A DNA stretch of 64,000 nucleotides from positions 127,214 to 191,213 of the forward strand of contig CAZEEU010000001.1 in assembly GCA_964511305.1 (NCBI GenBank), written 5' to 3'. Below, piece after piece: positions 1 to 25,146 of this stretch. Within the stretch, counting starts at the first letter, position 1. Each line of letters starts with the position of its first letter. Below the pieces are notes generated by a model, which had not been told where the DNA came from, did no database searches, and worked only from the letters and a program-made list of their open reading frames with translations. The stretch is from an uncultured Gammaproteobacteria bacterium. Lineage in GTDB: Bacteria; Patescibacteriota; Microgenomatia; Levybacterales; GWA1-39-11. The translations under genes and the position numbers were made by a program.

Positions 1-83
1 CCACACAAAAAAAGTCGGATTTCTTTTATGCAGCAAAAAAGCTAGAAATATTATAAAAATGATGTCCTGAATTTTTGGCATAT

Positions 84-1259
84 TTATCTAAGAAAGATTT
101 TAAGAATATTTTTTTTGTCTTTTTCAGTAAGTTCTGGATTGTTGCCAATATACAATCCCCTCTCATGTGCAATCTGAGCGTTCTCCATTTTGAAATTCTT
201 TTCCGCCGTATACTTTTTAAAAAATGGCTGCGCAGTAATATCGCCACCAACAATCGGACGTATCTCAATTTTACCATCACATATGCTTACTAGCTCGTCT
301 CTTAATTTTTGGCTTTTACAAATTATCGGAATTGCAAAATTTGAAAGTAAATCCATATGGTCATAATAAATTGGCAGGTAATAATCTTTTTGTTGATATA
401 TCTTAAGAGCAACTTCAAGAAAGTTCTTGTTTCTTTTTTTTATAATTTCTTCAAGAAATGACAGCTGCACATTTCCAAGAAATCCATTTATTTCAGTGGG
501 TCGTAAGTTGTAACCGAGATCATAAAATGTGTATCTTGAATAAAATGTAGAATTAACCTTATATTTATTCCTCATTTTAGTCTGTTTGGCTACTGAAAGA
601 TTCCTATCCCATCCATGAGCCCTAACAATTCGCAACTGGTGAGCTAAATCTCCATTATCAGTACAAATTGCACCTCCTTCGATTGTTGACATATGATGTC
701 CTACATAAAAAGAGTTTGTGCTCGCAAAACCATAATTTCCTAATTTCATACCTTTATAAACACTCCCCAGCGACTCACAGTTGTCCTCAAGAAGAATTAT
801 TTTTTCTTTTCTGCAAAAGTCATAAATCTTGTCGATGTCATCGCAAAAGCCTAAAGTATTGGTTAAAAAGAGGGCCTTAAGTTTATGTTTTTTTGTAGCT
901 TCAATGAATTTTGCAGAGGAGACATTTAATGTATTAAGTTCTATGTCAATTGGTATAGGCGTTAGTCCAAGCTCAATTATTGGCATTACATTGGTTGACC
1001 AAGTAAGTGCTGAAAAGGCGACGTTATCTCCTTTTCTTAACTTACCAAGATTAAGTAATGCTTGTATAAGTGCTAAGTTTGCAGAACTTCCACTATTAAC
1101 AAATACACAATATTTCCTCTCTTGGAAGTGAGCAAACTTTTTTTCAAATTTTTCACATTCTGCGCCAAAGCTTAATTGCTTGGCGCTTCCTACAAAACTC
1201 TGCAATGCTTTGATAGTTGCCGGTTCTTTATAAAAAGTAGACTTGACGAGCTTTATCAT
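84..1259 (-). CDS. DegT/DnrJ/EryC1/StrS-family PLP/PMP-dependent sugar-modifying enzyme; probable sugar 3-dehydratase (ColD/E1-like) rather than aminotransferase
   Basis: 391-aa ORF with the DegT-fold signature (…FVNSGSSANLAL…, …ILLEDNCESLGS…). At the position of the Schiff-base Lys the sequence reads 'SFYVGHHMSTIEGG'. The paralog at 15984..17144 has 'SFHAIKNMSTGDGG' there, so Lys is replaced by His, as in the PMP-dependent 3-dehydratases ColD and E1. Confidence 0.8.
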   Translation of the reverse strand: MIKLVKSTFYKEPATIKALQSFVGSAKQLSFGAECEKFEKKFAHFQERKYCVFVNSGSSANLALIQALLNLGKLRKGDNVAFSALTWSTNVMPIIELGLTPIPIDIELNTLNVSSAKFIEATKKHKLKALFLTNTLGFCDDIDKIYDFCRKEKIILLEDNCESLGSVYKGMKLGNYGFASTNSFYVGHHMSTIEGGAICTDNGDLAHQLRIVRAHGWDRNLSVAKQTKMRNKYKVNSTFYSRYTFYDLGYNLRPTEINGFLGNVQLSFLEEIIKKRNKNFLEVALKIYQQKDYYLPIYYDHMDLLSNFAIPIICKSQKLRDELVSICDGKIEIRPIVGGDITAQPFFKKYTAEKNFKMENAQIAHERGLYIGNNPELTEKDKKNILKIFLR

Positions 1260-3139
1260 GATTTCCGAATACGAACGTATGGGACAGTAACATAAGCCAA
1301 AAAGATTATGATCGAAATAATACTTATAGGCAACAGCATTTTTATATATTTTTGCGGCTCGTAATACAGTTTTGCTTTAGAGGAATCTGTTGGCAAATCA
1401 AAACTGTTAATTCCTTGGTAGTTGCTTGATTTTATAGCTTTACCATTAATATCTAGGGTCCAATATGGAGAATACGATTCTGAGAATAATAAAGTGCCGT
1501 TTTTACTATCAGCAAAATTTAACTCGTATTCTGTAGCAGTTATATTTTCTGACTTGACTTGTGAAATGCTGTTCAGGATGCTGAATCTATTTCGATATCC
1601 TGTATTTTCAAAAACGGCGATCTTACCAAAATTTTTAACCTTTTTAAGATATTTAATTTTATCTATCTTTTCAATGACATTTAAATAATTCTTCTGTGAA
1701 TATTTATGGTCATCTATAAATATTTCACCCTCACTATCAAAAGGTACAATTACATATTTTATAGAGTATAAATCGAGCTTACCATTCAGATTGGGCAATT
1801 CTTTCAGAATAGTTACTGGATCATTTTTAGAGAATAATTCCCCTCGACCAATTGCAGGACTCACTGTTGAGAAGTACCCATATCGTTGCCACTGGGGAAT
1901 CCATAATGTCCTAAATGACTCTTTCTGATCAATAATGAAATCTGAAAGCTGTTTGTATTCTTTTGGCACCTCTCTCATGCGTGGTATATTTACCTGTCCA
2001 TAAAAAATAAATCGATTCAAAAATATCCAATACATTACAAACAAAACCATAAGAATTTTAAGGCTAATAAATTTCAATTGCTTTTTTGAATGAAAATAAG
2101 AACTTATACAATTGATGCCAGAAGGGATTAATAATGAATAGGCAAAGGCAATAAGCATATAAAACTTTGTAGAATCGCGAAACGCACCAAAACCAGGAAT
2201 ACTATCGTATAAAAATTCATATACTTTTCCGAATGGCTCATTTGTTCCCTTAGCCAAAAATATGCCCACCAACGAAATCAACGTCAATACTATTATCTGA
2301 TTTCTTTCTTTTAGCTTTGCTTTCAATCCAAGCAGTGGAACGAAAGCAAGTATTGGAAGTAATAAAAATTCTGACTTTACAAAAGATACTTTCCCAAAAA
2401 TATTATCAGGCCAATTAGGATGAAGTAGAGATATAGAATTTTCAAGGTGTGCAAAGCTAAAAAAGCTAGCAGATCCAGTAACACCACTGCCTACACTCTT
2501 TTGCGCAAATAAAATAAGTGGCACTATCCAAAATAGGTGACTTAAAAATATAACTCCTATTGCAGTCAGCATCAACATGATTGTATCTTTAACTACAATT
2601 TTTCTTAAAAATATAAAAACAAAGAATAGCAGAAAAAGGCCAACTGCAAAGATACGTGGGTCAAATAGAGTGAGAAGAGACGAAACAAGTCCAAAAGTAA
2701 TCGATCTTCTCAGCGAATATTTTTCAATCGCATTTATAAATGTCAAAACCATAAAAGGAAGCAATGAATATGCAAAAGCTACGCCAAGTTGTCCTCCAAA
2801 AAATATTAAGAGAAAATACGTATTCGTTGAGAAAATGAGTCCAGCAATAATTGCTAGGTAGTTGTTGATAGAAAATATTTTTTTAAATAAATAGAAACCC
2901 CCGAGAAAAGAACTAATAGAGATAGGCAAAATCCATAATAAAATACTAGCCCAAAGCCATCCCATTCCAAGTTGTGAAATTGTTGCAGTAAGATTTAGAT
3001 AGCTTGTAATCCATAGAGTATTTATAGACTGAATTCCCAATCCGCTATTTAAAGATGAATCCCATGAAGATGGAATGCCAACAAATGAGGCTAGGCTGTC
3101 TTGCCAAAAGAATCTCCAGTCTCCTCTTATAATATCCAT
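1256..3139 (-). CDS. Polytopic membrane protein (GT-C-like) with a YfhO-type C-terminal extracytoplasmic domain and C-terminal TM anchor
   Basis: 627-aa ORF with many hydrophobic helices in the N-terminal half. The C-terminus reads '…SYSPYWTLDINGKAIKSSNYQGINSF…' followed by a hydrophobic anchor (LLPISIISIIIFLAYV), the same module seen in the YfhO-like proteins of this window. Its start codon abuts an in-frame TAA that separates it from the 104-aa ORF upstream. Confidence 0.75.
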   Translation of the reverse strand: MDIIRGDWRFFWQDSLASFVGIPSSWDSSLNSGLGIQSINTLWITSYLNLTATISQLGMGWLWASILLWILPISISSFLGGFYLFKKIFSINNYLAIIAGLIFSTNTYFLLIFFGGQLGVAFAYSLLPFMVLTFINAIEKYSLRRSITFGLVSSLLTLFDPRIFAVGLFLLFFVFIFLRKIVVKDTIMLMLTAIGVIFLSHLFWIVPLILFAQKSVGSGVTGSASFFSFAHLENSISLLHPNWPDNIFGKVSFVKSEFLLLPILAFVPLLGLKAKLKERNQIIVLTLISLVGIFLAKGTNEPFGKVYEFLYDSIPGFGAFRDSTKFYMLIAFAYSLLIPSGINCISSYFHSKKQLKFISLKILMVLFVMYWIFLNRFIFYGQVNIPRMREVPKEYKQLSDFIIDQKESFRTLWIPQWQRYGYFSTVSPAIGRGELFSKNDPVTILKELPNLNGKLDLYSIKYVIVPFDSEGEIFIDDHKYSQKNYLNVIEKIDKIKYLKKVKNFGKIAVFENTGYRNRFSILNSISQVKSENITATEYELNFADSKNGTLLFSESYSPYWTLDINGKAIKSSNYQGINSFDLPTDSSKAKLYYEPQKYIKMLLPISIISIIIFLAYVTVPYVRIRKS

Positions 3140-3454
3140 TTATTTGCTTTTAACCTCACGAAGGCATAACACAATGTATAGCACTGTAAGAAAGTATCCT
3201 AATATACTAACTTGCTCTGCATAATAAGTTTTTGAGAATGCAACAAAAAAATAATTAAGACCAAATGATATCAACCCGAAGAGCAGTATTTTCTCAGAAG
3301 AAGGTCTAAATAGAACAAGTGCGCTAATAACAAAGGAGAATAGAACTACCCCATCAAAAAAAGTACTAACAATATTTATATACGGCAATCGAATAAGGAA
3401 AGAAACAATGACTGCAATTAGAATAGATACTATGAATTTAACAACTGTTTTCAT
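3140..3454 (-). CDS. Small 4-TM membrane protein, possibly a GtrA-like polyprenyl-phosphate-sugar flippase component
   Basis: 104 aa with four hydrophobic segments and an 'SFGLNYFF' segment that loosely resembles the GtrA 'SFxxNxxxTF' region. It overlaps the upstream 1111-aa gene by 4 bp (ATGA), and the small-protein-within-GT-C-operon arrangement fits. Family assignment is weak. Confidence 0.5.
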   Translation of the reverse strand: MKTVVKFIVSILIAVIVSFLIRLPYINIVSTFFDGVVLFSFVISALVLFRPSSEKILLFGLISFGLNYFFVAFSKTYYAEQVSILGYFLTVLYIVLCLREVKSK

Positions 3455-6400
3455 TTTGCTTTTTTCTGCCTAGATATAACAAGTATTACAAGTGATGCCA
3501 AAAAAGTAGTTACAGAAATAATGCACCCGTATAAAAATAGTTCTTGAATACGGTATTCAATAGTAAGTTTTGTCGTACCAGAGGGGATGACCCAACCATT
3601 TGCATAACCATTTACTTGTATGTGCTTTGTCCCAGGCTTTGTAGCCCAATTGTCATTATATGACTGACCCATTACAAATATACTTTTCTTATCTTGGTGC
3701 ATTGGACTCATTATGTACTGCGTGTTGCTTCTTTTTACTGGCATAACACTCATACTAGACACGTTATTTTTATTGCTGACGAAAATGATGTCAGGAATTG
3801 CAACTTTACTCATAACTAAATCACTAACTTCTACGTCTGACTTGCCGTAGCCCTCTAAGCTTTCCCTATTACAAATTACTAAATGAAATCCATTATTACC
3901 AGGTGAGGCATATGTTGTTTCATATGAATTAGACTTTAGTTGAGAGGTTAATACGTCAATACTCTGAGCACTCATTACCGACTTTCCCTTAGGAACAAAC
4001 GCAACAAAGAATTTATCATCTACCTCTTTTCGCAAATGATTAAAAGTAACTTTATATATATCGTTTCTTTCGGAAAGCACCGCCTGAGAATAATAACAAC
4101 CATCTTTCATGGCTTTTAGATCTAGGGCTTTATTACCTTCAATCAAATTCTTTTTTTGCTGCTTCAGAACAACTCTATTTTTTCCCTTTTCAAGATTGTG
4201 AGATCCCAAATCGTACCAGCCATTGTATTTGTTAACGACTAGCGTACTTTTACCATCTGCATTTATACCAAGATCTACAGATTCTCCAATTTCAATATTG
4301 TCATTGGGTCGATAATAAACTTGATAAGTATTTTTTTCTGGAGAATTTACCAAAAGTCTTTTCTCTTCCTCGGTGCTTGTTCTCCAGGTTCTTGTGTCAA
4401 TCAAGTTCCAATTTATTTGAAGTGCATTGGCAAGACCCAGAAGCTTTGGCTGATAATTAGGGTACTTCTCAATAATTTGCCTGATAATAACTTGTTGCGT
4501 CCTTATGTAGCTTAGAAGATCAATTAAATTGTCGTTAGTAAAACTGTGTTTTGAATTTATCAATGTAGACGTTAATTCTTCTGAGGTTCCTGTAGCCTCA
4601 TTTATAATTCTTAAAATTATTCTATCCTCCTCAGCACTATCAAGACTTTTTTGAATACCCATAATATCTCTGAGTGTTTTTTGTGAATAAAATATGGATA
4701 ATTCTACAGGCTTTTTCTTAAGTTGAGCTTCCTGCTTTAGCTGCTGATTCTGAATATAAAAATATAAAACAGATCCTTGTGTAATTGTTGGAATATATTG
4801 CAAAGTGTTAATAAATTTCCACTGCAAGTTACAAGTGATGCACATGCTGTCTAAGTAATAATTAGTCGGGGCTAGTCCAATATTTTTGTAAGGCAAATCG
4901 TCCTTAAAGAGAACCTCAGGCTGTGATGCATTGAAATTCGGTAGGGTTACTATTTTTCCAAATGTGTTTGTATCGCCCCCGATATAAGAATACGAATCGC
5001 TGTTTGTAAAATTCCCCTCACTTTGATAAAAATCATATACTTCCCATTTACCAAAAGTTTTAACTTCCCCCAAGTTCTTTGAGCTGAGAGCTGCTTTGAA
5101 CCGATCAGGACTAACCGATGGAGAATTTGGATTATCCCAGACAAAGTCATTTCTAAGAATAAAAGATTGAATGCCCAGTATTTTTGCTAAATTTTGCCAA
5201 CCTTCTTCATTTTTTTCCATCATGCCGTACAACTTCGACAATAAAGCGTCTTCGTCCTTGGACATATAGAGACTGTTATTTAAGATGGGTGAATCAGTTA
5301 ATAAAGTAGTTATAGGCGCAAGACTCCAATAACCCCAAGCGTATTGCTCTACCTTGCCATCCGCATTAGGTGGAGGAAGCATTAACGTTTTTTTATCGCC
5401 TCTTGTTGCACTACCACTCCATTTCCCAAAATCATATATGTACTGTGGCACTTCAACCCTATTTGACTGCTTTCCTTTTATATAGTCGAAAAATGAACCA
5501 TTTAAAAATGGGTAACTATAAAGAACTATTCCACAACAAAAAATTAAGTAAAAAAGATAAGCAGCTTTTGGTTTTTTATGTGCAATTTTTACTGCAACAA
5601 AATTAACAAAAAATCCTAATAAGACTGCGTAGGCAAGCCAGAGTGAAGGGGAGAATTTATAGAAAGGGTTACGAAAGGCAATGAATCCCGGGACGTACTT
5701 CATAAGCATTATGTATAAAGCCCCAAATGGTGGATGAGCACCAGCTACAAAAACAAGACTTACGACAGCAAGAAAAGCAAAAAATAATAGGATTTTACGC
5801 TCCGTTTTTTTCTTGTACAAAAGTAATGTTATGAATGCTGCTACTGGTATTAAAGAACTTATTAAAATCAGAAACGGATTATGCAAGAATACGTTTGCAT
5901 ACGGATGACTTGGATTTTGATACCACTCTGGCACTCCCTGAAGTCTAATTAAATTGCTATATGAACTATTTTCACTTACATATTTAACCCAATCTAAAAT
6001 TCCATCCTGGCCTCCAAAAAAGTCCACTGACTGACTGTAGGAAGTTTTTAAGGAACTTCCAAATGGAATTAACCAATACGAATGCAGCAACACGCTAAAT
6101 AAAAGAACAGTTCCAAAAAGCTTTGACAACATTAAAAGTCTTTTTCCTGATGCCTCTTGAATAAAGTAATATATGACAAACACAAGCAAGGAGATAATAA
6201 CTCCTCCAAAAAGAGGAAGACTGGCAAGTCCGTTCAGAAGAAAAAATATTAACGCTATAAGAATGCCAGTTGTCAGTGTTTTTCTTTTTCCTTCATTCCA
6301 ATCCAAAAGTAGTGCAATCATGAGGGGAAGCGCTGCGTACACTGAAAATTTAGTTCTCTCAGCAACAAACCATCCCTGCAATAAAAAGTGATTTATCATG

Positions 6401-6786
6401 TAGAAAATTGCAACAGGAAGGCTGAAGAATTTTAGCTTTAGCTTGTCCTCTATCTTTGTTGCCAGGTAGTACATCGACAGACCAGGCAGCACGAACCAGA
6501 AAATAAAAGTGATTTTCTGCATAGATTGCAAGCCAAATCCAGCATATGTGACCACTGCTTCAAGTCCGTGAATGAATATTCCGGGAAGTGCGTACGTCTG
6601 ATCATTACCAAACCCGAATCTGACTGTCCATGTATAGAGTCTGTCCAGAAAATGCGGGATAGGAGCCAATGGAAGGCCAGCATCATGCCCTAAAATAACC
6701 TGTGATTGCCCAAACCAAAGCAATGGGATCAAACCCAAAAGAAGAATTATGAGTATCTCTATTCTACGTTGACTGATAAATTTCAT
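3451..6786 (-). CDS. Very large membrane protein: N-terminal ~550-aa multi-TM (GT-C-like) domain, ~500-aa extracytoplasmic domain, C-terminal TM anchor
   Basis: 1111-aa uninterrupted ORF. The N-terminus begins with 'GHDAGLPLAPIPHFLDRL…' and is followed by more than 10 hydrophobic helices. The central and C-terminal region is hydrophilic and β-rich, and the protein ends with a hydrophobic anchor '…GCIISVTTFLASLVILVISRQKKAK'. Confidence 0.8.
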   Translation of the reverse strand: MKFISQRRIEILIILLLGLIPLLWFGQSQVILGHDAGLPLAPIPHFLDRLYTWTVRFGFGNDQTYALPGIFIHGLEAVVTYAGFGLQSMQKITFIFWFVLPGLSMYYLATKIEDKLKLKFFSLPVAIFYMINHFLLQGWFVAERTKFSVYAALPLMIALLLDWNEGKRKTLTTGILIALIFFLLNGLASLPLFGGVIISLLVFVIYYFIQEASGKRLLMLSKLFGTVLLFSVLLHSYWLIPFGSSLKTSYSQSVDFFGGQDGILDWVKYVSENSSYSNLIRLQGVPEWYQNPSHPYANVFLHNPFLILISSLIPVAAFITLLLYKKKTERKILLFFAFLAVVSLVFVAGAHPPFGALYIMLMKYVPGFIAFRNPFYKFSPSLWLAYAVLLGFFVNFVAVKIAHKKPKAAYLFYLIFCCGIVLYSYPFLNGSFFDYIKGKQSNRVEVPQYIYDFGKWSGSATRGDKKTLMLPPPNADGKVEQYAWGYWSLAPITTLLTDSPILNNSLYMSKDEDALLSKLYGMMEKNEEGWQNLAKILGIQSFILRNDFVWDNPNSPSVSPDRFKAALSSKNLGEVKTFGKWEVYDFYQSEGNFTNSDSYSYIGGDTNTFGKIVTLPNFNASQPEVLFKDDLPYKNIGLAPTNYYLDSMCITCNLQWKFINTLQYIPTITQGSVLYFYIQNQQLKQEAQLKKKPVELSIFYSQKTLRDIMGIQKSLDSAEEDRIILRIINEATGTSEELTSTLINSKHSFTNDNLIDLLSYIRTQQVIIRQIIEKYPNYQPKLLGLANALQINWNLIDTRTWRTSTEEEKRLLVNSPEKNTYQVYYRPNDNIEIGESVDLGINADGKSTLVVNKYNGWYDLGSHNLEKGKNRVVLKQQKKNLIEGNKALDLKAMKDGCYYSQAVLSERNDIYKVTFNHLRKEVDDKFFVAFVPKGKSVMSAQSIDVLTSQLKSNSYETTYASPGNNGFHLVICNRESLEGYGKSDVEVSDLVMSKVAIPDIIFVSNKNNVSSMSVMPVKRSNTQYIMSPMHQDKKSIFVMGQSYNDNWATKPGTKHIQVNGYANGWVIPSGTTKLTIEYRIQELFLYGCIISVTTFLASLVILVISRQKKAK

Positions 6787-7457
6787 TTGGTACCAATAAA
6801 ATAAATTGGACTGTTAAGGTATGGGAGAGGAATTGCAAAAGGTATTATGACCTGAAACCTCTTGTTGTATCTGTAAAAAAATGGAATGAGTGTGAATCTG
6901 TGATATTGCACATTCTTAAACCCGACCTTCTTCATGATAGCTACCCATGCTTGAGGATATTTAACATTGATATGTGTAGGGTCACGAAAGTTCCATTTAT
7001 AAGGATAGGGTGTTGAGATAACTGCCTTACCTTTAGCTTCCAATGCTTCATAAATATTTTGAATTCCTTTTTCTGGATTTTCTAAATGCTCCACTACCTC
7101 AAAAGCAATAATGTAATCAAATTTAACAGGTAACGTTATCTTTTTCTGGATATCGATGACACTAAATTTTACATTTGGAGTAAGCTTTTTGGCTTTCTTA
7201 ACCGCGTATTCAGATATATCACTTGCGTAGACATCAAATCCCTTTTCGACCAACAAACTTGAGACCGCACCGATAGAGCACCCTATCTCTAAAATCTTTT
7301 TGCCATTTCCCTTTTTTAGAGGAATATATTCTCCAAGCTTTTCAATCCAAGCAAAGAACCAACGTCGAGATAATTCCAAATCTTCCTTACTAAAATTTCC
7401 AACTGCACTCTTGTACCAACCTTTAAAGTACGTCTCCTCAAATTTATTTTTCGGCAT
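6783..7457 (-). CDS. Class I SAM-dependent methyltransferase
   Basis: 224 aa with motif I 'KILEIGCSIGAVSS', an acidic motif II '…DVYASDIS…' and motif III '…DYIIAFEVVEHL…'. It overlaps the upstream gene by 4 bp. Confidence 0.85.
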   Translation of the reverse strand: MPKNKFEETYFKGWYKSAVGNFSKEDLELSRRWFFAWIEKLGEYIPLKKGNGKKILEIGCSIGAVSSLLVEKGFDVYASDISEYAVKKAKKLTPNVKFSVIDIQKKITLPVKFDYIIAFEVVEHLENPEKGIQNIYEALEAKGKAVISTPYPYKWNFRDPTHINVKYPQAWVAIMKKVGFKNVQYHRFTLIPFFYRYNKRFQVIIPFAIPLPYLNSPIYFIGTK

Positions 7458-7518
7458 ATCTTGATAAGATTATACATAATATTAACCTATTTACTATCTG
7501 TTAATTGTCGAAAATAAG

Positions 7519-9585
7519 TTAATTATTGTAGCGAAGGGTTTTAATAATAAGTTCGATAAATTCATTCTTGCCAAGACTCGCATCGTCTTTGGTACTATTT
7601 TCAAATTCATCTCCAACCGTTTCAATTCGAATATAAGAAGACCCATCGTATTGAGGAACGAAATAAACCGGGTACTTACCAGTAAGTACATATAGACAAG
7701 TGACCGTACCGTAATTCTCGTTAGTAATATTTACGAGTCTCCAATTCTGACCAATCGTTTGTCCGTCGCTATCGGTGAGCGTTTGAACAAAATCGTGAAA
7801 GTATGATTTATTATCCTTTGAGAACATTGCAACACGAATTATCGAACCTTTGGTTAGTTCTATATAGTTAAGCAATCTCGACTGTTCAGAATAGTTAGGG
7901 TCTATTTTAAATGAAAATTTCTCAAGCTCCTCTTTCTTCCAGTTTCTTGTAATGATTCTGTCACCAACCTCGTTCTTATACTCAGGCAAGAAGGTTTCCG
8001 TTATATTTATTAACCTGTTTTCTTTTCCATCCCAAGAATAAGCCTTTATATCCCCTTCACTTATGTTATTTTTTAATCCATCTTTAAATAGATCCTCACG
8101 ATTTAAATAATAACCAAATGATAGATTTTTATCTTTAAAATACCAGCTTTTATTTAATGGGATTTTCTGTAGAGATCTTGTACTAACAAATTGAGGACCA
8201 AGCTCTCCTTTATTAAAGTACTGGATTGCTAGGACCTGCCCAAGGTTAGTTTGGAATGGGGGAATCTGTGCGAATCCATAATAACCTTGATTACTTTCTA
8301 TCAAAAAAACAGTATTGGCGCTTAAGTTTTTTGAATCAGACTGAATTGAATTTATTATTTGTTTGCGCACTATGCCGGTCTGCTCGTAAGGAGTGAGTAT
8401 CTGCTGCAACGTAAAATAACTGGAAATAAGAAAAAGCATTATTACCAAACAATAAATTGCAATGACCTTCCACTTGATGTCTTTTCTTAATTTCGAATGA
8501 ATAAATTTACCAACACCTATAAATATGAAAGACCATGCTACCGAAACCAGGTATAAATATCTTGAATCTATAATTAAAAATTCGATTTTATAAGAGGAAT
8601 AAAGGGATGTTAGAAGTACGATGAAGGCATTAACAAATATCATTGCCATTCCAATAAGAATGATTTTTGACTCACTCCTTCTTCGTTCTTTAAAGCAGAA
8701 AACTGAAATCAATATGGCCATAGCGAAAATGACTATATGTACCGATTCATGAGTTGCCAAGCTAATCTGCTTATTTAGAGTCGAGTAAGACACTAAATCC
8801 TGCAACGCCATGTTTGAGAAGATTTGAATGTAGTTTTGAAAAGTATCCATCCCAATATGTAACTTATTTTGGAATATTTCCCCAGCAACAAAAAACTTTG
8901 GCAATATAAATCTAAAAAGAAAATAAACAATTGCCAAAACAGAGATTGCCTTAATAACTTTTCTGAAAGATCTAGAATCCAAAAGGTAGGTTATGAGTGG
9001 AATTAGAACAAAAAGCACTACTGCATTTTCTTTTATAAGAAGCGCGCCAACAAAGGAACCCAAAGATATAACAATTTGATTTTTTTTCTTTTGAAAACTT
9101 CCAAGAAGAGCCAGCAAAGAAATTAAAATTAGAGAGGTAGACAAAAGGTCATATATAGTAACCATAGGCCACGTTACTGCTTGAAAATGACTTACGTTAA
9201 TCGCCAGAAACAGTGAGGCAAAAAAGGCTAACCCACTACTTACTTTAAGTGCACGACAGAGCTTAAATAATAAAAGGCAGTTTAACGCATGAAGTAACAG
9301 TCCTAGAAGAATATACCAAGTAAAATTAAGCCTAAAGATTAAGATACTTACAAACCAAAGCAGGCTCTGCAAGGGGACGACGTGACCTCCGCCTGAGATC
9401 CAATAAGCATCTACTATGGATTTACTTAATGAATGAAACAGTCCAATTAAAGGATTGGTAACAAGTGGAAAGTATTCAGAAAAGTAGAACCATTCATCCC
9501 CTTGAAAATAAAATGAAAATGCTTTGTGATAGTAAATTAGAATTAGAATCAGAAAAGCAAAGAAAGAAAGTACTATTCTCTTCAT
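7519..9585 (-). CDS. Polytopic membrane protein, GT-C-like, with a C-terminal soluble domain
   Basis: 688 aa. The N-terminal 'FQGDEWFYF' acidic loop motif is followed by ~12 hydrophobic helices. The C-terminal ~280 aa are hydrophilic, with no terminal anchor. Confidence 0.75.
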   Translation of the reverse strand: MKRIVLSFFAFLILILIYYHKAFSFYFQGDEWFYFSEYFPLVTNPLIGLFHSLSKSIVDAYWISGGGHVVPLQSLLWFVSILIFRLNFTWYILLGLLLHALNCLLLFKLCRALKVSSGLAFFASLFLAINVSHFQAVTWPMVTIYDLLSTSLILISLLALLGSFQKKKNQIVISLGSFVGALLIKENAVVLFVLIPLITYLLDSRSFRKVIKAISVLAIVYFLFRFILPKFFVAGEIFQNKLHIGMDTFQNYIQIFSNMALQDLVSYSTLNKQISLATHESVHIVIFAMAILISVFCFKERRRSESKIILIGMAMIFVNAFIVLLTSLYSSYKIEFLIIDSRYLYLVSVAWSFIFIGVGKFIHSKLRKDIKWKVIAIYCLVIMLFLISSYFTLQQILTPYEQTGIVRKQIINSIQSDSKNLSANTVFLIESNQGYYGFAQIPPFQTNLGQVLAIQYFNKGELGPQFVSTRSLQKIPLNKSWYFKDKNLSFGYYLNREDLFKDGLKNNISEGDIKAYSWDGKENRLINITETFLPEYKNEVGDRIITRNWKKEELEKFSFKIDPNYSEQSRLLNYIELTKGSIIRVAMFSKDNKSYFHDFVQTLTDSDGQTIGQNWRLVNITNENYGTVTCLYVLTGKYPVYFVPQYDGSSYIRIETVGDEFENSTKDDASLGKNEFIELIIKTLRYNN

Positions 9586-10595
9586 TCTTTATATCCAACC
9601 AAGCTTTTTGCAAAAAGGTAATAGTAGTAGGTTAATCCGGGACTTCGTTTTATTTCACCTAGAAAAGCGCTATCCTTTATAACTCTTATTTTCTCTTGAA
9701 TTCTCTTTCTCTTGGCAAGAGTTGATTTCAGATTTACAACATTCCAATATATTGCCCTGTTGATGCTTAGGAAAAGGTCAAATCTACCTTTTGGAATAAA
9801 AGATAACGCTGCTGCTTCACACAATATTAAGTGCACTGGTAAGATTTTAATAAGTTCAACAGTCCCAAGGTTCTTTATATAAGAACATATTCTGTTTTTA
9901 AATGAATGAAATTGTATAAAGCCATTATTCATGGCGTTTGAAGTACCTCCAACTTTATGATGTATCACTGACTTCGGAGCATAAACAATTGAATATCCTA
10001 AAAGCCATACTCGATGACAAAAGTCGGTCTCTTCAAAATATGCAAAAAAGTCCTCATCAAATAACCCCACCCTATCGATAACTTCTTTTTTAATCATCAT
10101 GCATGCACCTTTTGCGGTATACAGATAATGAGTAGCGTCATATTTTTTCTTATCTTTTTGAAAATACCCGTAATGATAGAGAAACCCTGTACTTGTGTAA
10201 TATGCTCCAACTGAATCCAGTCTATCCGGATAATCCATGGAAAGAATTTTGCTCTGCACTACCCCTATCTTATCTTCTGCTTCAATTGCTTTAACAAGCT
10301 CAGTTACAAAATCTTTTGTGACTACCGTGTCATTGTTAAGCAACAATACATAATCCCCAGTAACCGCAGGCAGGCCCTTGTTATTACCACCAGAAAATCC
10401 TAAATTTTTCTTGCACTTTACTATTTTTATCTTTGGGAAATTCTCTTCAATATAACGTATTGAATCGTCATGGGAAGCATTATCAACAACTATCGTTTCG
10501 AGATTGGGATAGGTTACTTTCGACAATGATGGAAGACATTTTTTAAGATGAGAAAGTCCGTTCCAATTTACAATAATAATTGAGACTTTTTTCAT
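9582..10595 (-). CDS. Glycosyltransferase family 2 (rhamnosyltransferase/WbbL-like subfamily)
   Basis: 'VSIIIVNWNGLSHLKKCLPSL…IVVDNASHDDS', '…LLLNNDTVV…' and 'FDEDFFAYFEETDFCHRVWLLGY' are typical GT2 motifs (DxD region and C-terminal ED/DFC box). Confidence 0.9.
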   Translation of the reverse strand: MKKVSIIIVNWNGLSHLKKCLPSLSKVTYPNLETIVVDNASHDDSIRYIEENFPKIKIVKCKKNLGFSGGNNKGLPAVTGDYVLLLNNDTVVTKDFVTELVKAIEAEDKIGVVQSKILSMDYPDRLDSVGAYYTSTGFLYHYGYFQKDKKKYDATHYLYTAKGACMMIKKEVIDRVGLFDEDFFAYFEETDFCHRVWLLGYSIVYAPKSVIHHKVGGTSNAMNNGFIQFHSFKNRICSYIKNLGTVELIKILPVHLILCEAAALSFIPKGRFDLFLSINRAIYWNVVNLKSTLAKRKRIQEKIRVIKDSAFLGEIKRSPGLTYYYYLFAKSLVGYKE

Positions 10596-11311
10596 ATAGA
10601 TGCAGTCTTAACTGCCCGTATGTCAATTTCGGCAAACCCTTTATTTCTATAATCTCTTCTAACTAATGCGTCAATCAATCTATTCCTTGGTTCTTTTTTA
10701 CCTAATGCGTGTTTAAAAAAGTACAAAATTAAAATTGATAGTGTGGTATAAAAACCTGCATTATATTTTATGTCTTTTACAGTAAAACCAGACAGCTGTA
10801 GCAATGAGAGTAATTCTTTTTTTGAGTAATGTCTATGCCCAAAAAAGAATGCAGGGTCCAAAACATTAGAAAGCAAATTATTATTCATTGTATTTATAAA
10901 GAGTGTTCCATTTTTCTTCATAGAGCGATTGATATTTATTAAAGAGACTAATTCACTTCCTCTTGGTATATGCTCAATGACCATGAAATACAATACAACG
11001 TCAAATTCTTCTTTTTTAGGAAGAGCATCTACTATTGAATGTTTGTAGAATTTAAATTTAGGAAATTTTTTTGTTGCCGTTTTTAGTGGCGCACTTTCTA
11101 TATCTATTCCAGTGACATTGCACTTTTCTTTTATCATTAGTTCTTCCAATGGCCCACTCCAACAGCCGATATCTAACACTGCTTTATTAAGAATATAGGG
11201 ACGAATCCAGTTGAATAAAAAATAATGTCCTGGCACTAACACATTCTCTCCATCTCGAGAGGCAACATACTTCATTCTAGACTGCATATTATAATTAAAA
11301 CATTCTATCAA
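10592..11311 (-). CDS. Class I SAM-dependent methyltransferase
   Basis: 239 aa with motif I 'VLDIGCWSGPL' and '…DVVLYFMVIEHIP…'. It overlaps the upstream GT2 by 4 bp. Confidence 0.8.
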   Translation of the reverse strand: MIECFNYNMQSRMKYVASRDGENVLVPGHYFLFNWIRPYILNKAVLDIGCWSGPLEELMIKEKCNVTGIDIESAPLKTATKKFPKFKFYKHSIVDALPKKEEFDVVLYFMVIEHIPRGSELVSLININRSMKKNGTLFINTMNNNLLSNVLDPAFFFGHRHYSKKELLSLLQLSGFTVKDIKYNAGFYTTLSILILYFFKHALGKKEPRNRLIDALVRRDYRNKGFAEIDIRAVKTASI

Positions 11312-11358
11312 ACTACTCTATTGATAAAAAGGAGTTGTTTGTCTAAAATCAAGATCAT
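11312..11358. promoter_or_regulatory. Divergent intergenic region between the minus-strand methyltransferase and the plus-strand epimerase; presumed divergent promoters
   Basis: A 47-bp AT-rich spacer lies between two divergently oriented start codons and contains a 'TAAAAT' -10-like hexamer. This is positional inference only. Confidence 0.3.
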
Positions 11359-12318
11359 ATGAAAGTACTAATTACCGGAGGAAATGGATTTATTGGAAGT
11401 TCGGTCGCACACAAACTTTTAAAACGAGGCTATGAAATAGGGGTACTTGATAATGATTCAAGTTTTATAAATAAGCCTAAATACCACAAAGCAGCTCTTG
11501 AGCACAGAAAAAAACTTTTTAAAAATAAAATTTCGTATAGTCTTAAAGGTGACATCCGCAACAAATCGCATGTAAAAAGAGCCTTCGATGAATTTCAGCC
11601 AAATATAGTAGTGCATTTGGCAGCAATACCAATGGCACGACCACTGCCAGAATTTGAAGAAGAGATGATTCCAATAACCCTTTATGGCACGCTAAATGTA
11701 CTTGAAGAATTTGAAAAATGTGAGTCCGCAACTAAGATTGTCTACACATCATCAAGTATGACCTATGGACATTTCACAAAGAGTCCACAGCCTGAGGATG
11801 TAATGCTTAATCCAATAAATAGTTACGGAGCCTGCAAAGCTGCTGGTGAATATTTTGTAAAACTCTCAAAGAAAGAATGGGTAATCGTCAGACCAACCTC
11901 TGTATACGGATATGCTGATGCCGCCAACAGAGTAACACAACTACTTCTGGACGCTGCACTCAATAATAAATCCGCTTGGGTTGTAAGAGGAGAAACACTC
12001 GACTTTTCCTACATCGAAGACGTTGCAGAAGGATTTGCACTTGCTGTTGAGCGCCCAAGTGCTGTATACCAAACATTTAATATTTCAAAGGGAGAACCAA
12101 GATCTGCATCAGACTTTGCTGAGATACTTAAAAAACACTTTCCTAAATTCACATATGACGTGAAAGAACCAACTGTTCAGCAAGTTTTTCGTGGAGCACA
12201 AGATATAACAAAAGCAAAGGACTTCTTGAATTTTTCTCCGAAGTTCAACATTGAGGATGGAATTGAAGATATTCTACGCCTTGTTGAAGAGTACAACTGG
12301 AAGAAAGACGCATACTAA
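11359..12318 (+). CDS. NAD-dependent sugar epimerase/dehydratase (extended SDR)
   Basis: N-terminal Rossmann 'MKVLITGGNGFIGSSVAHKLL' and the catalytic 'YGACKAAGE' (YxxxK) motif. 319 aa. Confidence 0.9.
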   Translation: MKVLITGGNGFIGSSVAHKLLKRGYEIGVLDNDSSFINKPKYHKAALEHRKKLFKNKISYSLKGDIRNKSHVKRAFDEFQPNIVVHLAAIPMARPLPEFEEEMIPITLYGTLNVLEEFEKCESATKIVYTSSSMTYGHFTKSPQPEDVMLNPINSYGACKAAGEYFVKLSKKEWVIVRPTSVYGYADAANRVTQLLLDAALNNKSAWVVRGETLDFSYIEDVAEGFALAVERPSAVYQTFNISKGEPRSASDFAEILKKHFPKFTYDVKEPTVQQVFRGAQDITKAKDFLNFSPKFNIEDGIEDILRLVEEYNWKKDAY

Positions 12319-13808
12319 TGGTTTATTATTTAGGGGTACTCATACCTCTTCTTGGTTTTATACTTCAGGCCTACCCACGACTCATAAATAAATCCTTTGG
12401 AGTGGATGTGTGGACACGCCTCCTTGAGATTGACGCAATACGAAATGCCAACCATAGAGTTCCAGATAAAGTTGAAAAGGGATTTATTATAGAGGGACAT
12501 TTCGATTATCCTCCGGTTTTTCCTTTTATTTTTTCTTTTATCTCAAGAAAGGCTATTATTAGATTTCAAGGATACATTTCCCCTCTTATTGATTCATTTC
12601 AGACCTTTTTCGTTTTTGTTTTTTGTTATCAAATTACAAATTCACTAGCAATGTCATTGCTTGCTCAATTAATTTATATACTCACACCAATGATTGCCGT
12701 TGAGAATAGCTATCTCACTCCTCGCTCTCTCGGATACCTAACATTTACCCTAGCTTTTTATCCTCTTATCTTAAATCAACTTAATCCTTCAAACCTCACA
12801 TTATTAAGCGGCGTAATTTTCGCAGTTTTATTATTTCTCACACACAGATTCGCCTTGCAGTCTTACGTAATATTATGCCTACTCATGGGCGCACTAACGG
12901 GTTCATTGCATTTTTTTGCTATTCCCGTTGTGTCATTTATTCTCGCTGTTATTATTACCAAGGGGTACTATCTGAGGGTACTTAAAGGTCATCTATCTAA
13001 CATTTACTTCTGGGTAATAAATTATAAGTATCGCTTTGCTCATCAAATCTATGGACTCCGCGAAAGTAAAAAAAATGATTGGGTAGCGGTCGTATACAAG
13101 CTTCTTTCTGAATTCTCACCAATATTCCTTCTTTTTACAAATGTATGGGCCGCCTCTGCATTCGTTTTTATATATCTATATATTGGAACTAGCATATTCC
13201 AAGACTCTCCGATTTTAGTTTACTTTGCATTCTGGGTAGCCTTTTGCTATATCCTTGGAGCTATTATCTTAAGATTTAAAGTACTAATACCAATAGGTGA
13301 AGGTCAACGGTATCTTGAAATGGCAACGCTACCTAGTGCAATTCTCACATCATATCTTGCCTTTTACTTTTACGGCATTTACGGCACTATAGTAATTTTC
13401 CTTGGCGGATTTATACTTGCCTCCAACTTGGCCTTAATACTTTACATCCAAATAAAGGGGGTAATTAACGACAAAAATAGATCTCTTACTCCAGAACTTG
13501 AAAAAATGTATAGCTTTATTAACAGGTTGCCAGAAAAAAGACCTAGAATAATGTGCATACCTCATCAAATAACAACGATGACAGTTTTTCATACAAAGGC
13601 GGACGTATTAGTAAATGCAGACAATCCAGGTCTTATGAAACTTTCAGACTTTTACCCAATACTTAACGTAGACCTACAAACTCTTCAGAAAAAATATCAG
13701 CTAGACTATATACTTTTAAGAGAGAACTTTGCAAAGGAAAAGGATTTACCAATAAGCAAAACACAAACAATCTTTACCTCTGGGGACATTCAACTCCTTA
13801 AATTCTAA
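12318..13808 (+). CDS. Polytopic membrane protein of an uncharacterised family (paralog of 13805..15274)
   Basis: 496 aa with many TM helices. It shares with its convergent neighbour the motifs 'YPRL(I/V)N..FGVD(V/I)WT', 'YDYPP', 'TPRSLGY', 'GEGQRYLE' and 'CIPHQITT'. Confidence 0.75.
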   Translation: MVYYLGVLIPLLGFILQAYPRLINKSFGVDVWTRLLEIDAIRNANHRVPDKVEKGFIIEGHFDYPPVFPFIFSFISRKAIIRFQGYISPLIDSFQTFFVFVFCYQITNSLAMSLLAQLIYILTPMIAVENSYLTPRSLGYLTFTLAFYPLILNQLNPSNLTLLSGVIFAVLLFLTHRFALQSYVILCLLMGALTGSLHFFAIPVVSFILAVIITKGYYLRVLKGHLSNIYFWVINYKYRFAHQIYGLRESKKNDWVAVVYKLLSEFSPIFLLFTNVWAASAFVFIYLYIGTSIFQDSPILVYFAFWVAFCYILGAIILRFKVLIPIGEGQRYLEMATLPSAILTSYLAFYFYGIYGTIVIFLGGFILASNLALILYIQIKGVINDKNRSLTPELEKMYSFINRLPEKRPRIMCIPHQITTMTVFHTKADVLVNADNPGLMKLSDFYPILNVDLQTLQKKYQLDYILLRENFAKEKDLPISKTQTIFTSGDIQLLKF

Positions 13809-24376: not shown

Positions 24377-25146
24377 ATTTTTTTCCCTAAATATAGGTAA
24401 TAAGAAACAGGAAATCTGAGAGCAGACATTAAAGCAAAAACAAATCCTTGCCATCCATCCATAAAACCCTTGTGACGCCCGTATGCTGTAAGCATCCAGT
24501 GTGCCGGTTTTGCTAAGACATATCCAACACCTAGAACAAATTGCTGTAAGACATTTTTTCCCTTCATATCATCTTTAATCTGTTGAGCCAAAAGATGGTT
24601 ATATCTCATCCATTTTTTACGATAAAATGCAAAGTCTTTATAGGGGTAATGCAGCAAAGCCTCCTTTAAGTATCCGACTTTTCCTTCTATCACTGCCTGC
24701 TCGTGCACATCTTTTTGAGGCAAATGTCCTCTGCCATTTCGATATAGCCTAACAGTATAGTCAGGATATTGCCCCCCCTTCAACAAAAATCTTCCAAGGA
24801 AATAATTTTTCCGGGGCATCCAAAAGCCATTCTCCTCTGGGTCTTTTGAAATAATCTTTTTTATTTCCGAAGAAAGCTCTTCGGAAACTACTTCGTCAGC
24901 ATCCATTTGTAATATCCAGTCTCCAGTTGCTCGATCAATGGCCTTCTGCTTGTTGATGTGAAAATTTGTAGGATTGGTTGTAACAAGCACCTTTGCACCA
25001 AATGCCTTAGCAATTTCAACCGTTTTATCTTTAGATGTTCCATCCACTATCACTATTTCAGAAGCTAAAGATTTGACTGATTCTAAGCATCTTGGAAGAT
25101 TCTCTTCTTCGTTATATGTCGCCAAAACAACAGAAATTTTTTTCAT
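24373..25146 (-). CDS. Glycosyltransferase family 2 (WaaE/KdtX-like subfamily)
   Basis: 'ISVVLATYNEEENLPRCLESV…IVIVDGTSKDKT…WILQMDADEVVS'. Paralogous to 41405..42157 and 47062..47961. Confidence 0.85.
   Translation of the reverse strand: MKKISVVLATYNEEENLPRCLESVKSLASEIVIVDGTSKDKTVEIAKAFGAKVLVTTNPTNFHINKQKAIDRATGDWILQMDADEVVSEELSSEIKKIISKDPEENGFWMPRKNYFLGRFLLKGGQYPDYTVRLYRNGRGHLPQKDVHEQAVIEGKVGYLKEALLHYPYKDFAFYRKKWMRYNHLLAQQIKDDMKGKNVLQQFVLGVGYVLAKPAHWMLTAYGRHKGFMDGWQGFVFALMSALRFPVSYYLYLGKKI

Follow-up and report, generated by a model that had tools for sequence, protein, structure and literature searches.

An AftD-like GT-C membrane protein from a glycan-synthesis island of a Microgenomates-type Patescibacterium

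An AftD-like membrane enzyme

The 1111-aa protein encoded on the minus strand (positions 3451..6786) of the stretch of DNA analysed here, a window of 64 kb, is AftD-like in design, but it is a distant relative that is built differently and not an orthologue of AftD. It is a genuine membrane enzyme of an uncultured ultra-small bacterium (Patescibacteria), and is likely to be an integral-membrane glycosyltransferase of GT-C fold, belonging to the AftD superfamily, that moves a lipid-linked sugar onto surface polysaccharide at the outer face of the membrane. The annotation is based on the ORF, its homologues, an AF2 model and AftD as the top structural match. The reading frame extends from ATG to stop and is the longest in the window (runner-up, 778 aa), as had been noted before. 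Hundreds of full-length homologues with identities down to ~30% (E = 0 to 1e-150) were found, hence the ORF is not a chance product.

Domain architecture and predicted structure

The AF2 model of the protein is confident rather than disordered (pLDDT 88.6, pTM 0.83). The N-terminal multi-TM region of the original prediction is present in the first ~430 residues, and the motif quoted there, GHDAGLPLAPIPHFLDRL, is located at residues 33-50. This GT-C core (residues 1-433; 5488..6786, minus strand, as for all segments below) is the best-conserved part of the protein and was delimited by hydropathy, the model, conservation and PF11847. Nine strongly hydrophobic segments are recognized by hydropathy, and the model contains additional helices. 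The first outside loop (EL1, residues 28-63; 6598..6705) is followed, at the end of the core, by an extracytoplasmic alpha/beta domain that completes the GT-C module (residues 434-660; 4807..5487), as outlined by secondary structure and by alignments with AftD and a paralogue. Next is a bundle of long alpha-helices, or stalk, at about residues 661-800 (4387..4806; modelled secondary structure). The beta-sandwich region (residues 801-1078; 3553..4386) comprises one or more CBM-like jelly rolls and a terminal sandwich carrying W1047 and the motif G1060-x-x-N1063-x-W1065. A single C-terminal TM helix with the cytoplasmic tail RQKKAK (residues 1079-1111; 3454..3552) ends the protein. The hydrophobic helix spans residues 1087-1105 by hydropathy and 1079-1110 in the model, in agreement with the predicted terminal anchor.

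The extracytoplasmic domain had been described as ~500 aa of beta-rich sequence. Its actual extent is ~650 aa (429-1086), and only the sandwiches at 801-1078 fit the beta-rich description, whereas the alpha/beta domain and the long-helix bundle do not. The protein would have a cytoplasmic N-terminus, an odd number of TM helices (about 11-13) and ~650 residues outside, with one helix at the C-terminal end leading back through the membrane to a short basic tail inside. Besides CBM-type structures, the jelly-roll outer modules also match GOLD and ephrin-receptor domains, and for this reason "CBM" is a statement about the fold and not about demonstrated sugar binding.

Comparison with mycobacterial AftD

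The proposed resemblance to AftD-type giant GT-C enzymes, with CBM-like domains and a terminal anchor, is supported. In Foldseek, the model matches Mycobacterium AftD (PDB 6W98, 6WBX, 6WBY; PF11847, GT-C_AftD) with E 1e-18 and probability 1.0; AftA follows with E 2e-4. The identity in the structural alignments is only 10-14%. At the sequence level, AftD is likewise the sole meaningful match in the PDB, the E-value being 0.29 when the single sequence is searched and 0.006 with the family profile, whose match falls into three collinear pieces. No Pfam match at E<0.1, PF11847 included, is obtained with the 1111-aa query. Among eight homologues, two pass the PF11847 cut-off of 26 bits (40.6 and 45.3 bits), four score below it and two are unmatched. 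The match in the two passing homologues covers residues 38-585, almost the whole GT-C domain. Judged by these scores, the family appears to be a divergent fringe of the PF11847 model.

AftD contains three carbohydrate-binding modules, proposed to hold the glycan acceptor, and a structural beta-sandwich, while its TM13-16 bundle binds acyl carrier protein (ACP). Residues K39/D41 in the first outside loop and D474 in the outside domain are essential (bioRxiv 10.1101/2019.12.22.885152). Both proteins share the GT-C fold, that is, an N-terminal multi-TM core with an outside alpha/beta domain, and a conserved acidic residue in EL1. In two HMMER alignments, D35 is placed opposite AftD D37 or K39; the register of this loop is ambiguous by 2-4 residues. 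The alpha/beta domain aligns with AftD chain residues 439-569, has an R-x-D motif at D547 in common with it and is followed in both proteins by CBM-type beta-sandwich modules. A final sandwich with a W...NGxxxGW-type motif and a subsequent TM helix are also found in both. The C-terminal sandwich and helix align in sequence with the AftD segment taken as the last beta-sandwich and TM12, which suggests that the terminal helix corresponds to AftD TM12. The conserved basic loop with R372/K377 may be equivalent to the AftD TM9-TM10 loop with R357/K361, judged from its location and from matches of this region to PF11847 and MmpA rather than from a direct alignment.

The differences are equally clear. 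The 1111-aa protein is ~300 residues shorter than AftD and stops 6 residues past its single terminal TM helix, leaving no counterpart of the TM13-16 bundle; because of this, ACP binding is presumably missing. In the profile alignment, AftD D474/E475 lie opposite L489/A490 in the family motif W484-G-Y-W-S-L-A-P, and neither position is among the conserved charged residues of the family. Since the four-helix ACP-binding bundle and the D474/E475 pair are both absent, the protein is not an AftD orthologue. Further, it seems to have fewer CBM-like modules, and the 140-residue helical stalk is an insertion with none described for AftD. The hosts also differ, a Microgenomates-type CPR Patescibacterium in one case and an actinobacterium in the other.

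Conservation and candidate catalytic residues

The per-column frequency of the commonest residue averages 0.72 in EL1, 0.61 in the TM core and 0.33-0.42 in the outer modules. In the GT-C core, 91 positions are ≥90% conserved among sequences sharing only ~30% identity. Such a profile would be expected if the catalytic machinery is kept constant while the outer parts are specific to the acceptor. EL1, with the invariant residues G33-H34-D35, D48-R49 and W53, is the probable catalytic loop, as suggested by these invariant columns, the alignment with the AftD loop and a corresponding GDW motif in a paralogue. The invariant charged residues are H34, D35, D48, R49, H73, E143, R144, K146, R372, K377 and D547, with R372 and K377 located in the loop P366-G-F-x-A-F-R-x-x-x-x-K-F.

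Genomic context

The 1111-aa gene does not head its operon as proposed, but is the fifth of eight co-directional genes on the minus strand (from 11311 to 84) that mostly overlap, with one 61-nt gap. The run starts with a 239-aa SAM-dependent methyltransferase (10592..11311; Methyltransf_23, E 4e-15), which is conserved in related loci. The second gene encodes a 337-aa cytoplasmic GT2 glycosyltransferase similar to rhamnosyltransferases and GlfT1 (9582..10595; Glycos_transf_2, E 8e-26; NCBIfam rhamnosyltransferase, E 1e-20), whose upstream position is conserved in related loci as well. It is followed by a 688-aa membrane protein with 11 predicted TM helices and a ~290-aa C-terminal domain (7519..9585), which also occupies this place in the nearer related loci. 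Searches of Pfam, NCBIfam and PDB sequences gave no match for it; hhalign aligns it with the family of the 627-aa paralogue described below (probability 88.7%, E 2.6e-6), and it probably is another GT-C-type enzyme. The fourth gene, a 224-aa SAM-dependent methyltransferase (6783..7457; Methyltransf_23, E 4e-21), overlaps the start of the AftD-like gene with its stop (ATGA); a homologue ends at this start in ~26 of 70 related loci.

Downstream, the predicted translational coupling is present: the stop of the 1111-aa ORF overlaps the start of a 104-aa ORF (ATGA at 3454-3451), and the TAA of the latter is directly followed by the ATG of a 627-aa ORF in the same frame. The idea that the two downstream ORFs form one 732-aa protein, hidden by read-through of the in-frame TAA or by a sequencing error, was rejected, since they occupy different frames in 15 of 19 related loci and mostly overlap there by 4 nt. 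The last gene of the run overlaps the 627-aa gene and encodes a 391-aa DegT/RfbH-like PLP-dependent sugar aminotransferase or dehydratase (84..1259; Pfam DegT_DnrJ_EryC1, E 2e-58; NCBIfam RfbH, E 5e-67, below its cut-off). Promoter-like and terminator-like matches in the region 1-12500 are not more frequent than in shuffled sequence; one promoter-like site lies within the 61-nt gap, before the 224-aa methyltransferase gene.

The 104-aa product (3140..3454, minus strand) is a small membrane protein with four TM helices and a P24-Y25-x-N27 motif after TM1. Of 70 related loci, 54 have a gene of this kind following the AftD-like one, and such a separate neighbor is a further difference from AftD. 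The protein has no Pfam or PDB sequence match and no similarity to AftD 3' regions. Membership in GtrA, SMR or another known family was rejected, as none of 44 family members gave a meaningful Pfam match. An 11-sequence alignment served as input for its structure prediction.

The 627-aa product (1256..3139, minus strand) is a shorter AftD-family paralogue consisting of a TM core, the alpha/beta domain and a terminal TM helix, as identified by PF11847 (27.2 bits, just over the cut-off) and by hhalign against the 1111-aa family (probability 99.9%, E 3e-33). It begins at the GDW motif that is the counterpart of EL1, aligns to the 1111-aa protein up to residue 629 and lacks TM1, the stalk and the CBM-like region. 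The EL1 G-D motif and the PGFxAFRxxxKF loop are common to both families. A shorter paralogue of this type also lies downstream of the AftD-like gene in ~34 of 70 related loci. Both the small 4-TM protein, which is co-translated, and the shorter paralogue are probably functional partners of the AftD-like enzyme, presumably in a complex with it.

The window as a whole is a glycan-synthesis island encoding GT2 and GT4 enzymes, Wzx-like flippases, sugar aminotransferases, an acetyltransferase, epimerases and many GT-C paralogues. The N-terminal 244 residues of the 1111-aa protein match a PTPS_related paralogue in the window (profile-profile probability 96.9%, E 2e-10), and its terminal beta-sandwich and TM helix match the C-terminus of a YfhO paralogue (probability 73.5%). 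These paralogues, in contrast, have 550-780 aa and neither a helical stalk nor a CBM-like region; the best structural match of the 1111-aa protein overall is AftD. A further weak match concerns MmpA (NCgl2761/Rv0226c family), a trehalose-lipid delivery protein of Corynebacterineae. It covers the PGFxAFRxxxKF loop, with E 1.3e-4 and 20.7 bits for residues 310-426 of the 1111-aa protein and E 7e-10 and 38.1 bits for the 627-aa paralogue. These scores are far under the family cut-off of 210 bits, and size, domains and host group differ.

Proposed function

In addition to the observed fold, family relationship, conservation pattern and gene linkage, we infer for the enzyme the type of donor and a glycan, as opposed to a protein, as acceptor. 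A GT2 similar to ArnC, GtrB or AglJ would place a sugar on polyprenyl phosphate at the cytoplasmic face, and the lipid-linked sugar would then flip across the membrane. The active site may be formed at the interface between membrane and outside by EL1 (H34, D35, D48, R49), the R372/K377 loop and the alpha/beta domain, and would attach the sugar to a surface polysaccharide as this grows. As has been proposed for AftD, the glycan acceptor could be held by the distal part of the protein, a variable region of CBM-like jelly-roll sandwiches carried on the helical stalk. GT2 enzymes of the type required for the initial step are encoded in the island; several related loci have them within the cassette itself. 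In the window, AglJ/ArnC/PpgS-like GT2 domains are encoded at 36087-36815 and 49484-50197; no polyprenyl-phosphate sugar synthase (GtrB/ArnC-type GT2) is located next to the 1111-aa gene, the GT2 of the cassette being soluble and rhamnosyltransferase-like. In at least 7 related loci, an ArnC-like GT2 (~310 aa, two C-terminal TM helices) is encoded right after the 627-like gene (one tested, ArnC E 1.4e-54).

This organization resembles three-component systems such as GtrA/GtrB/Gtr*, CsbB/GtcA/YfhO, ArnC/ArnEF/ArnT and pentofuranose systems (PMC11127046), in which the GT-C gene also adjoins a small 4-TM gene. The likeness extends to the ArnC/GtrB-like GT2 in the cassette of the at least 7 related loci and, for the pentofuranose systems, to a CBM-like module on the GT-C enzyme. 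In contrast, the small 4-TM protein here matches neither GtrA nor another Pfam family, and no GtrB-type GT2 adjoins in the window's own cassette, which, with two or three GT-C proteins and two methyltransferases, exceeds a simple side-chain modification module.

The AftD match also raises the question of a true functional orthologue, which would build or branch arabinan in the CPR envelope by transferring arabinofuranose from decaprenyl-phosphate-arabinose. No other solved structure comes nearly as close as AftD, homologues are named alpha-(1->3)-arabinofuranosyltransferase family proteins at NCBI, and GT-C enzymes with CBM domains add pentofuranose well beyond mycobacteria (PMC11127046). We nevertheless regard this as very unlikely. 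In the window ORFs scanned (≥150 aa) and in the genes called for two related loci, neither a UbiA-type phosphoribosyltransferase gene nor DprE1/DprE2-like genes are found; the absence of the D474/E475 pair and of the ACP-binding bundle and the low identity also speak against it, and AftD homologues were reported across the class Actinobacteria only (bioRxiv 10.1101/2019.12.22.885152). Transfer to a surface protein, for example an S-layer protein or pilin, in the manner of an oligosaccharyltransferase or PMT, is unlikely as well: the AftD match scores clearly higher and spans over twice as many residues, the outer modules have a CBM-type jelly-roll fold, and the neighbors (Wzx-like flippases, GT4s, nucleotide-sugar modification enzymes) resemble a polysaccharide repeat-unit pathway.

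The loss of the acidic pair, including the essential AftD residue D474, and the weak MmpA match would also fit a mainly non-catalytic scaffold or lipid/glycolipid delivery factor, in the manner of MmpA, in which the GT-C fold was kept and transfer lost. AftD itself interacts with TmaT, a link to mycolate transport (bioRxiv 10.64898/2026.07.31.741767). However, the EL1 His-Asp and ~90 further core positions conserved to ≥90% at ~30% identity represent a preserved active-site signature, and the MmpA match is short and confined to the common PGFxAFR loop. Moreover, mycolate synthesis is not known from CPR bacteria, and this role appears highly improbable.

Beyond the favored reading as a polysaccharide-directed glycosyltransferase, a more specific scenario can be put forward tentatively, though it is rather doubtful. 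The AftD-like enzyme, the P-Y-x-N 4-TM protein and the TM1-less paralogue might be subunits of a single heteromeric machine that only Microgenomates-type CPR bacteria possess. In this machine, the small protein could be a lipid-linked-sugar flippase of a new family or an in-trans substitute for the TM13-16 bundle, and the two GT-C subunits could polymerise and branch a wall glycan carrying methyl groups and amino sugars, a CPR counterpart of the actinobacterial arabinan scaffold.

Distribution and relevance

AftD-type enzymes, placed in Actinobacteria by the AftD study, help to build the arabinan of the mycobacterial wall (bioRxiv 10.1101/2019.12.22.885152). The family described here comprises 1,914 cluster representatives at E<=1e-30, and the best 150 hits of the representative search are all CPR-type. 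Most of this large clade belongs to Microgenomates-type Patescibacteria (CPR); as a sister group of AftD with its own architecture and a conserved gene cassette in ultra-small, host-dependent bacteria, it is not discussed in the papers searched. The surfaces of Patescibacteria mediate host attachment and are chemically almost unstudied; the AftD-like protein and its partners offer concrete handles on their complex glycans. The value is mostly that of a lead, as the AftD-family naming is partly present at NCBI already and the fold assignment is unsurprising. Among the literature matches listed, none pairs "arabinofuranosyltransferase" or "DUF3367" with CPR/Patescibacteria, and those for GT-C and Patescibacteria deal exclusively with mycobacteria and Gram-positive bacteria. 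All sequences retrieved with a 131-aa AftD fragment as query were themselves fragments (98-225 aa), and the two long contigs examined are full of frameshifts.

Gene organization and predicted structure

The 1111-aa ORF (3451-6786, minus strand) runs from ATG to stop and is the largest in the window, the runner-up encoding 778 aa. The motif quoted in the original prediction is located at residues 33-50 of the encoded protein. In agreement with the proposed multi-TM N-terminus and terminal TM helix, hydropathy analysis places nine strongly hydrophobic segments within residues 1-430 and a tenth at residues 1087-1105, which is followed by the tail RQKKAK. The stop codon overlaps the start of the 104-aa ORF (3140-3454, minus strand) in an ATGA, and the terminal TAA of the latter abuts the ATG of the 627-aa ORF (1256-3139, minus strand) in the same frame. 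Both junctions had been described correctly. The 1111-aa gene is, however, not the head of the operon as had been assumed, since its own start is overlapped (ATGA) by the gene of a 224-aa methyltransferase. A 688-aa membrane protein, a GT2 and a second methyltransferase are encoded 5' of a 61-nt gap, each gene overlapping its successor, and on the downstream side the 627-aa gene overlaps a DegT-type gene. Promoter- and terminator-like matches around this gene run are not more frequent than in shuffled sequence. The G+C content of the window is about 35%.

An AlphaFold2 model of the 1111-aa protein, based on an alignment of 45 sequences, has a mean pLDDT of 88.6 and a pTM of 0.83, with values below 50 in two short segments only. 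Its secondary structure comprises a helical membrane core (residues 1-433), an alpha/beta domain (434-660), five long helices (about 661-800) that form a stalk, beta strands (801-1078) and one helix (1079-1110). The outer domain, for which disorder or low complexity would have counted against the original prediction, is neither disordered nor of low complexity in the model.

As anticipated from the architecture, a Foldseek search against the PDB returned three entries of the mycobacterial arabinofuranosyltransferase AftD on top (E 1.2e-18 to 4.4e-17, about 1400 alignment columns), followed by AftA (E 2e-4) and, at rank 22, PglB (E 5e-3). The GT-C scores below AftD are 18.6 for ALG12, 18.1 for STT3B, 18.0 for AftA, 17.8 for Pmt4, 15.4 for PglB, 13.4 for ArnT and 12.3 for AftB. 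Local matches comprise CBM4 modules and a Bacteroides surface glycan-binding protein, and the helical part matches FlgN, FliT and Sso2-type bundles.

Comparison with AftD

AftD is also the sole meaningful PDB match at the sequence level (E 0.29 with the single sequence, 0.006 with a profile), in three collinear pieces. The third of these aligns the final beta-sandwich and C-terminal helix of the 1111-aa protein with a late AftD segment, which is taken to be the last beta-sandwich and TM12 of AftD. In AftD, 11 N-terminal TM helices and a GT-C outside domain are followed by three CBMs, a structural sandwich and TM12; a separate bundle after TM12 (TM13-16) binds acyl carrier protein, and five residues are essential, namely K39, D41, E251, K361 and D474 (bioRxiv 10.1101/2019.12.22.885152).

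Conservation in the 1111-aa family, measured per region as the mean frequency of the most common residue, decreases from 0.72 in the first outside loop (EL1, residues 28-63) to 0.61 in the TM core, 0.46 in the alpha/beta domain and 0.33-0.42 in the stalk and beta modules. Invariant charged residues include H34, D35, D48, R49, H73, E143, R144, K146, R372, K377 and D547, and the cysteine pairs 649/652 and 897/972 are likewise invariant. D35 sits in the loop that matches the K39/D41 loop of AftD, where two alignments disagree in register by 2-4 residues. For the numbering of the AftD chain we infer an offset of 3 from the publication, which agrees at both the K39/D41 and the D474/E475 sites. The acidic pair D474/E475 is not kept, as it aligns to L489/A490 in the family. 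The 1111-aa chain stops six residues past its single C-terminal helix, so that TM13-16 are absent. The protein has the design of AftD without two of the features that define it, and is therefore not filed as an AftD orthologue.

Family and distribution

A Pfam scan of the 1111-aa protein itself gave no match at E<0.1. A word-indexed search found 292 relatives, nearly all of 1100-1190 aa and alignable end to end. Identity is 98% in one of them and about 56% in three, and ranges from 44% down to about 30% in the others. Many of them carry a precomputed match to PF11847 (GT-C_AftD), and some are titled 'alpha-(1->3)-arabinofuranosyltransferase family protein [Patescibacteria group bacterium]' at NCBI. 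The core finding is thus unsurprising, since some NCBI records already state the AftD-family fold assignment. When eight homologues were rescanned with PF11847, two passed the cut-off of 26 bits over residues 38-585 (40.6 and 45.3 bits), four stayed under it and two had no match; DUF5667 matches three of the eight in the region 667-772. When 1.84 billion cluster representatives were searched exhaustively with a profile, 9,899 matched at E<=1e-3; the number falls to 6,006 with a threshold of E<=1e-10 and to 1,914 with E<=1e-30. The 150 top matches are all below E 1e-205, almost all with lengths of 1,000-1,200 aa.

A scan with one genome per species gave 79 loci. Named hosts are Levybacteria (the top named matches, 41-43% identity), Daviesbacteria, Roizmanbacteria, Woesebacteria, Gottesmanbacteria and Microgenomates, more rarely Parcubacteria and Dojkabacteria (a few each), and one labelled Omnitrophota. 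That CPR bacteria (Patescibacteria) have a large clade of AftD-like proteins is not described in the literature searched, nor is its distinct architecture, with a helical stalk, one terminal helix and no counterpart of D474, nor its conserved gene linkage, in which the partners are an uncharacterised 4-TM protein and a shorter paralogue.

The Patescibacteria-type cassette is found in dozens of TPA records with the title 'uncultured Gammaproteobacteria bacterium' (loci L005, L006, L009, L012-L016 and many others), and some of these contigs are identical to contigs that other sources list without that name. The Gammaproteobacteria names look like placeholders or mislabels. The window is most likely derived from a Microgenomates bacterium of the Levybacteria-like type, in keeping with its G+C content. 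A 146-aa AftD fragment (P0260), 75% identical to AftD of M. abscessus and titled 'partial [Escherichia coli]', lies on a 439-bp NCBI contig and is probably a contamination of an E. coli assembly.

Conserved neighborhood and companion genes

The 79 loci were compared for synteny by tblastn and ORF calling. Among the 70 loci with enough downstream sequence, 54 have an ORF of 100-135 aa with 3-4 TM helices that overlaps or abuts the AftD-like stop, and a 627-like gene comes next in about 34. A methyltransferase gene ends at the AftD-like start in about 26 loci, and the full order (methyltransferase, GT2, membrane protein, methyltransferase, AftD-like) is kept in nearer relatives. In at least seven loci, a GT2 of about 310 aa with two C-terminal TM helices directly follows the 627-like gene. 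One of these was tested and aligned with ArnC over its full length (E 1.4e-54), which identifies it as a polyprenyl-phosphate sugar synthase.

The 627-aa and the 1111-aa protein are paralogues, the former being the shorter (hhalign probability 99.9%, E 3e-33; residues 22-555 against 49-629). The 627-aa protein shares the terminal TM helix and lacks the stalk and the CBM-like part. Its N-terminus, M-D-I-I-R-G-D-W-R-F-F-W, begins at the first-outside-loop motif, and TM1 is missing here and in its closest relatives; in a GT-C enzyme without TM1, an N-terminal tail of about 60 residues would need export. Distant 627-like relatives (e.g. L032, L037, L052, L062, L075 and L080) have TM1 about 10 residues before the same motif (G/H/N-D-W). 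A single in-frame TAA (3137-3142, minus strand) splits the 104-aa and 627-aa ORFs, and four related loci are also in frame, with gaps of 3-93 nt. A single read-through gene was rejected: 15 of 19 related loci are out of frame, mostly with a 4-nt overlap, and the two are therefore regarded as separate genes. The 688-aa membrane protein (7519-9585, minus strand) has no family match and no PDB sequence match. Its family profile shows a weak relationship to the 627-aa family in the TM core (probability 88.7% by hhalign, E 2.6e-6), and the operon probably has in this protein a third enzyme of the GT-C type.

In the family of the small 4-TM protein, P-Y-x-N is nearly invariant after TM1 and A-E/D-x-x-G is semi-conserved before TM4. 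From the distribution of K/R, we read both termini of the 104-aa protein as probably cytoplasmic. The protein matched neither a Pfam family nor a PDB chain, its model is of low confidence (pLDDT 69), and comparison with two actinobacterial aftD loci gave no sequence signal for a separately encoded TM13-16. A function as flippase for a lipid-linked donor would fit, by analogy with the three-component logic of the Gtr, CsbB/GtcA/YfhO, Arn and pentofuranose systems (PMC11127046). A role as structural subunit is equally allowed. The identical 104-aa sequence occurs in 69 blocks of public assemblies, one of them a 460-kb contig, and the organism therefore recurs in many metagenomes.

Proposed function

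A polyprenyl-phosphate sugar would be synthesized inside, flipped across the membrane and then serve, on the outer side, as donor for the GT-C active site of the 1111-aa protein. EL1 (H34, D35) and the R372/K377 loop would form this site jointly with the alpha/beta domain, and variable jelly-roll modules on the helical stalk would hold the acceptor glycan. The data show the fold, the family, the pattern of conservation and the linkage of the genes; the class of donor, the glycan nature of the acceptor, the topology and the formation of a complex are inferred from them. A non-catalytic scaffold is unlikely because the loop residues are conserved, and transfer to protein instead of a glycan is considered improbable. 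That the enzyme is a true arabinofuranosyltransferase is also unlikely, because AftD features are missing and donor-pathway genes are absent nearby; UbiA-type and DprE-type genes were not found among the scanned window ORFs. AglJ/ArnC/PpgS-like GT2 domains are present farther along the window. Some cassette versions offer hints of a possible pentose or 4-keto-pentose nucleotide sugar supply. A gene for an NAD-dependent epimerase/dehydratase of about 315-345 aa lies one to two genes past the 627-like gene in L014, L054, L060, L061, L065 and L071, and the L014 and L060 sequences, read by eye, resemble UDP-glucuronate decarboxylases.

Glycan-biosynthesis island

The whole window (1-64000) is one glycan-biosynthesis island. 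GT-C-type Pfam families match 12 ORFs: PMT_2 at 22838-24454, 26815-28089, 29585-31261, 31258-32883, 53536-55170 and 59165-60874, YfhO at 37743-40007, 42154-44472 and 56845-59181, and PTPS_related at 44488-46176, 50178-51872 and 55215-56864. Several membrane proteins of similar size without a family are interspersed among them. Such a density of GT-C paralogues is unusual for a small-genome bacterium. About ten GT2s, three GT4s and two Wzx-like flippases are also encoded, together with a PseC/ArnB-like aminotransferase with a WecD-like acetyltransferase, GalE and another epimerase/dehydratase as sugar-modifying enzymes.

Two paralogous proteins of 496 and 489 aa (12318-13808, plus strand; 13805-15274, minus strand), without a Pfam or NCBIfam match, have 8-9 TM helices, a C-terminal domain of about 130 aa and the common N-terminal motif Y-P-R-L-x-N-x-x-F-G-V-D-x-W-T. 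The pair is kept beside the cassette in many related loci, at 50-78% identity.
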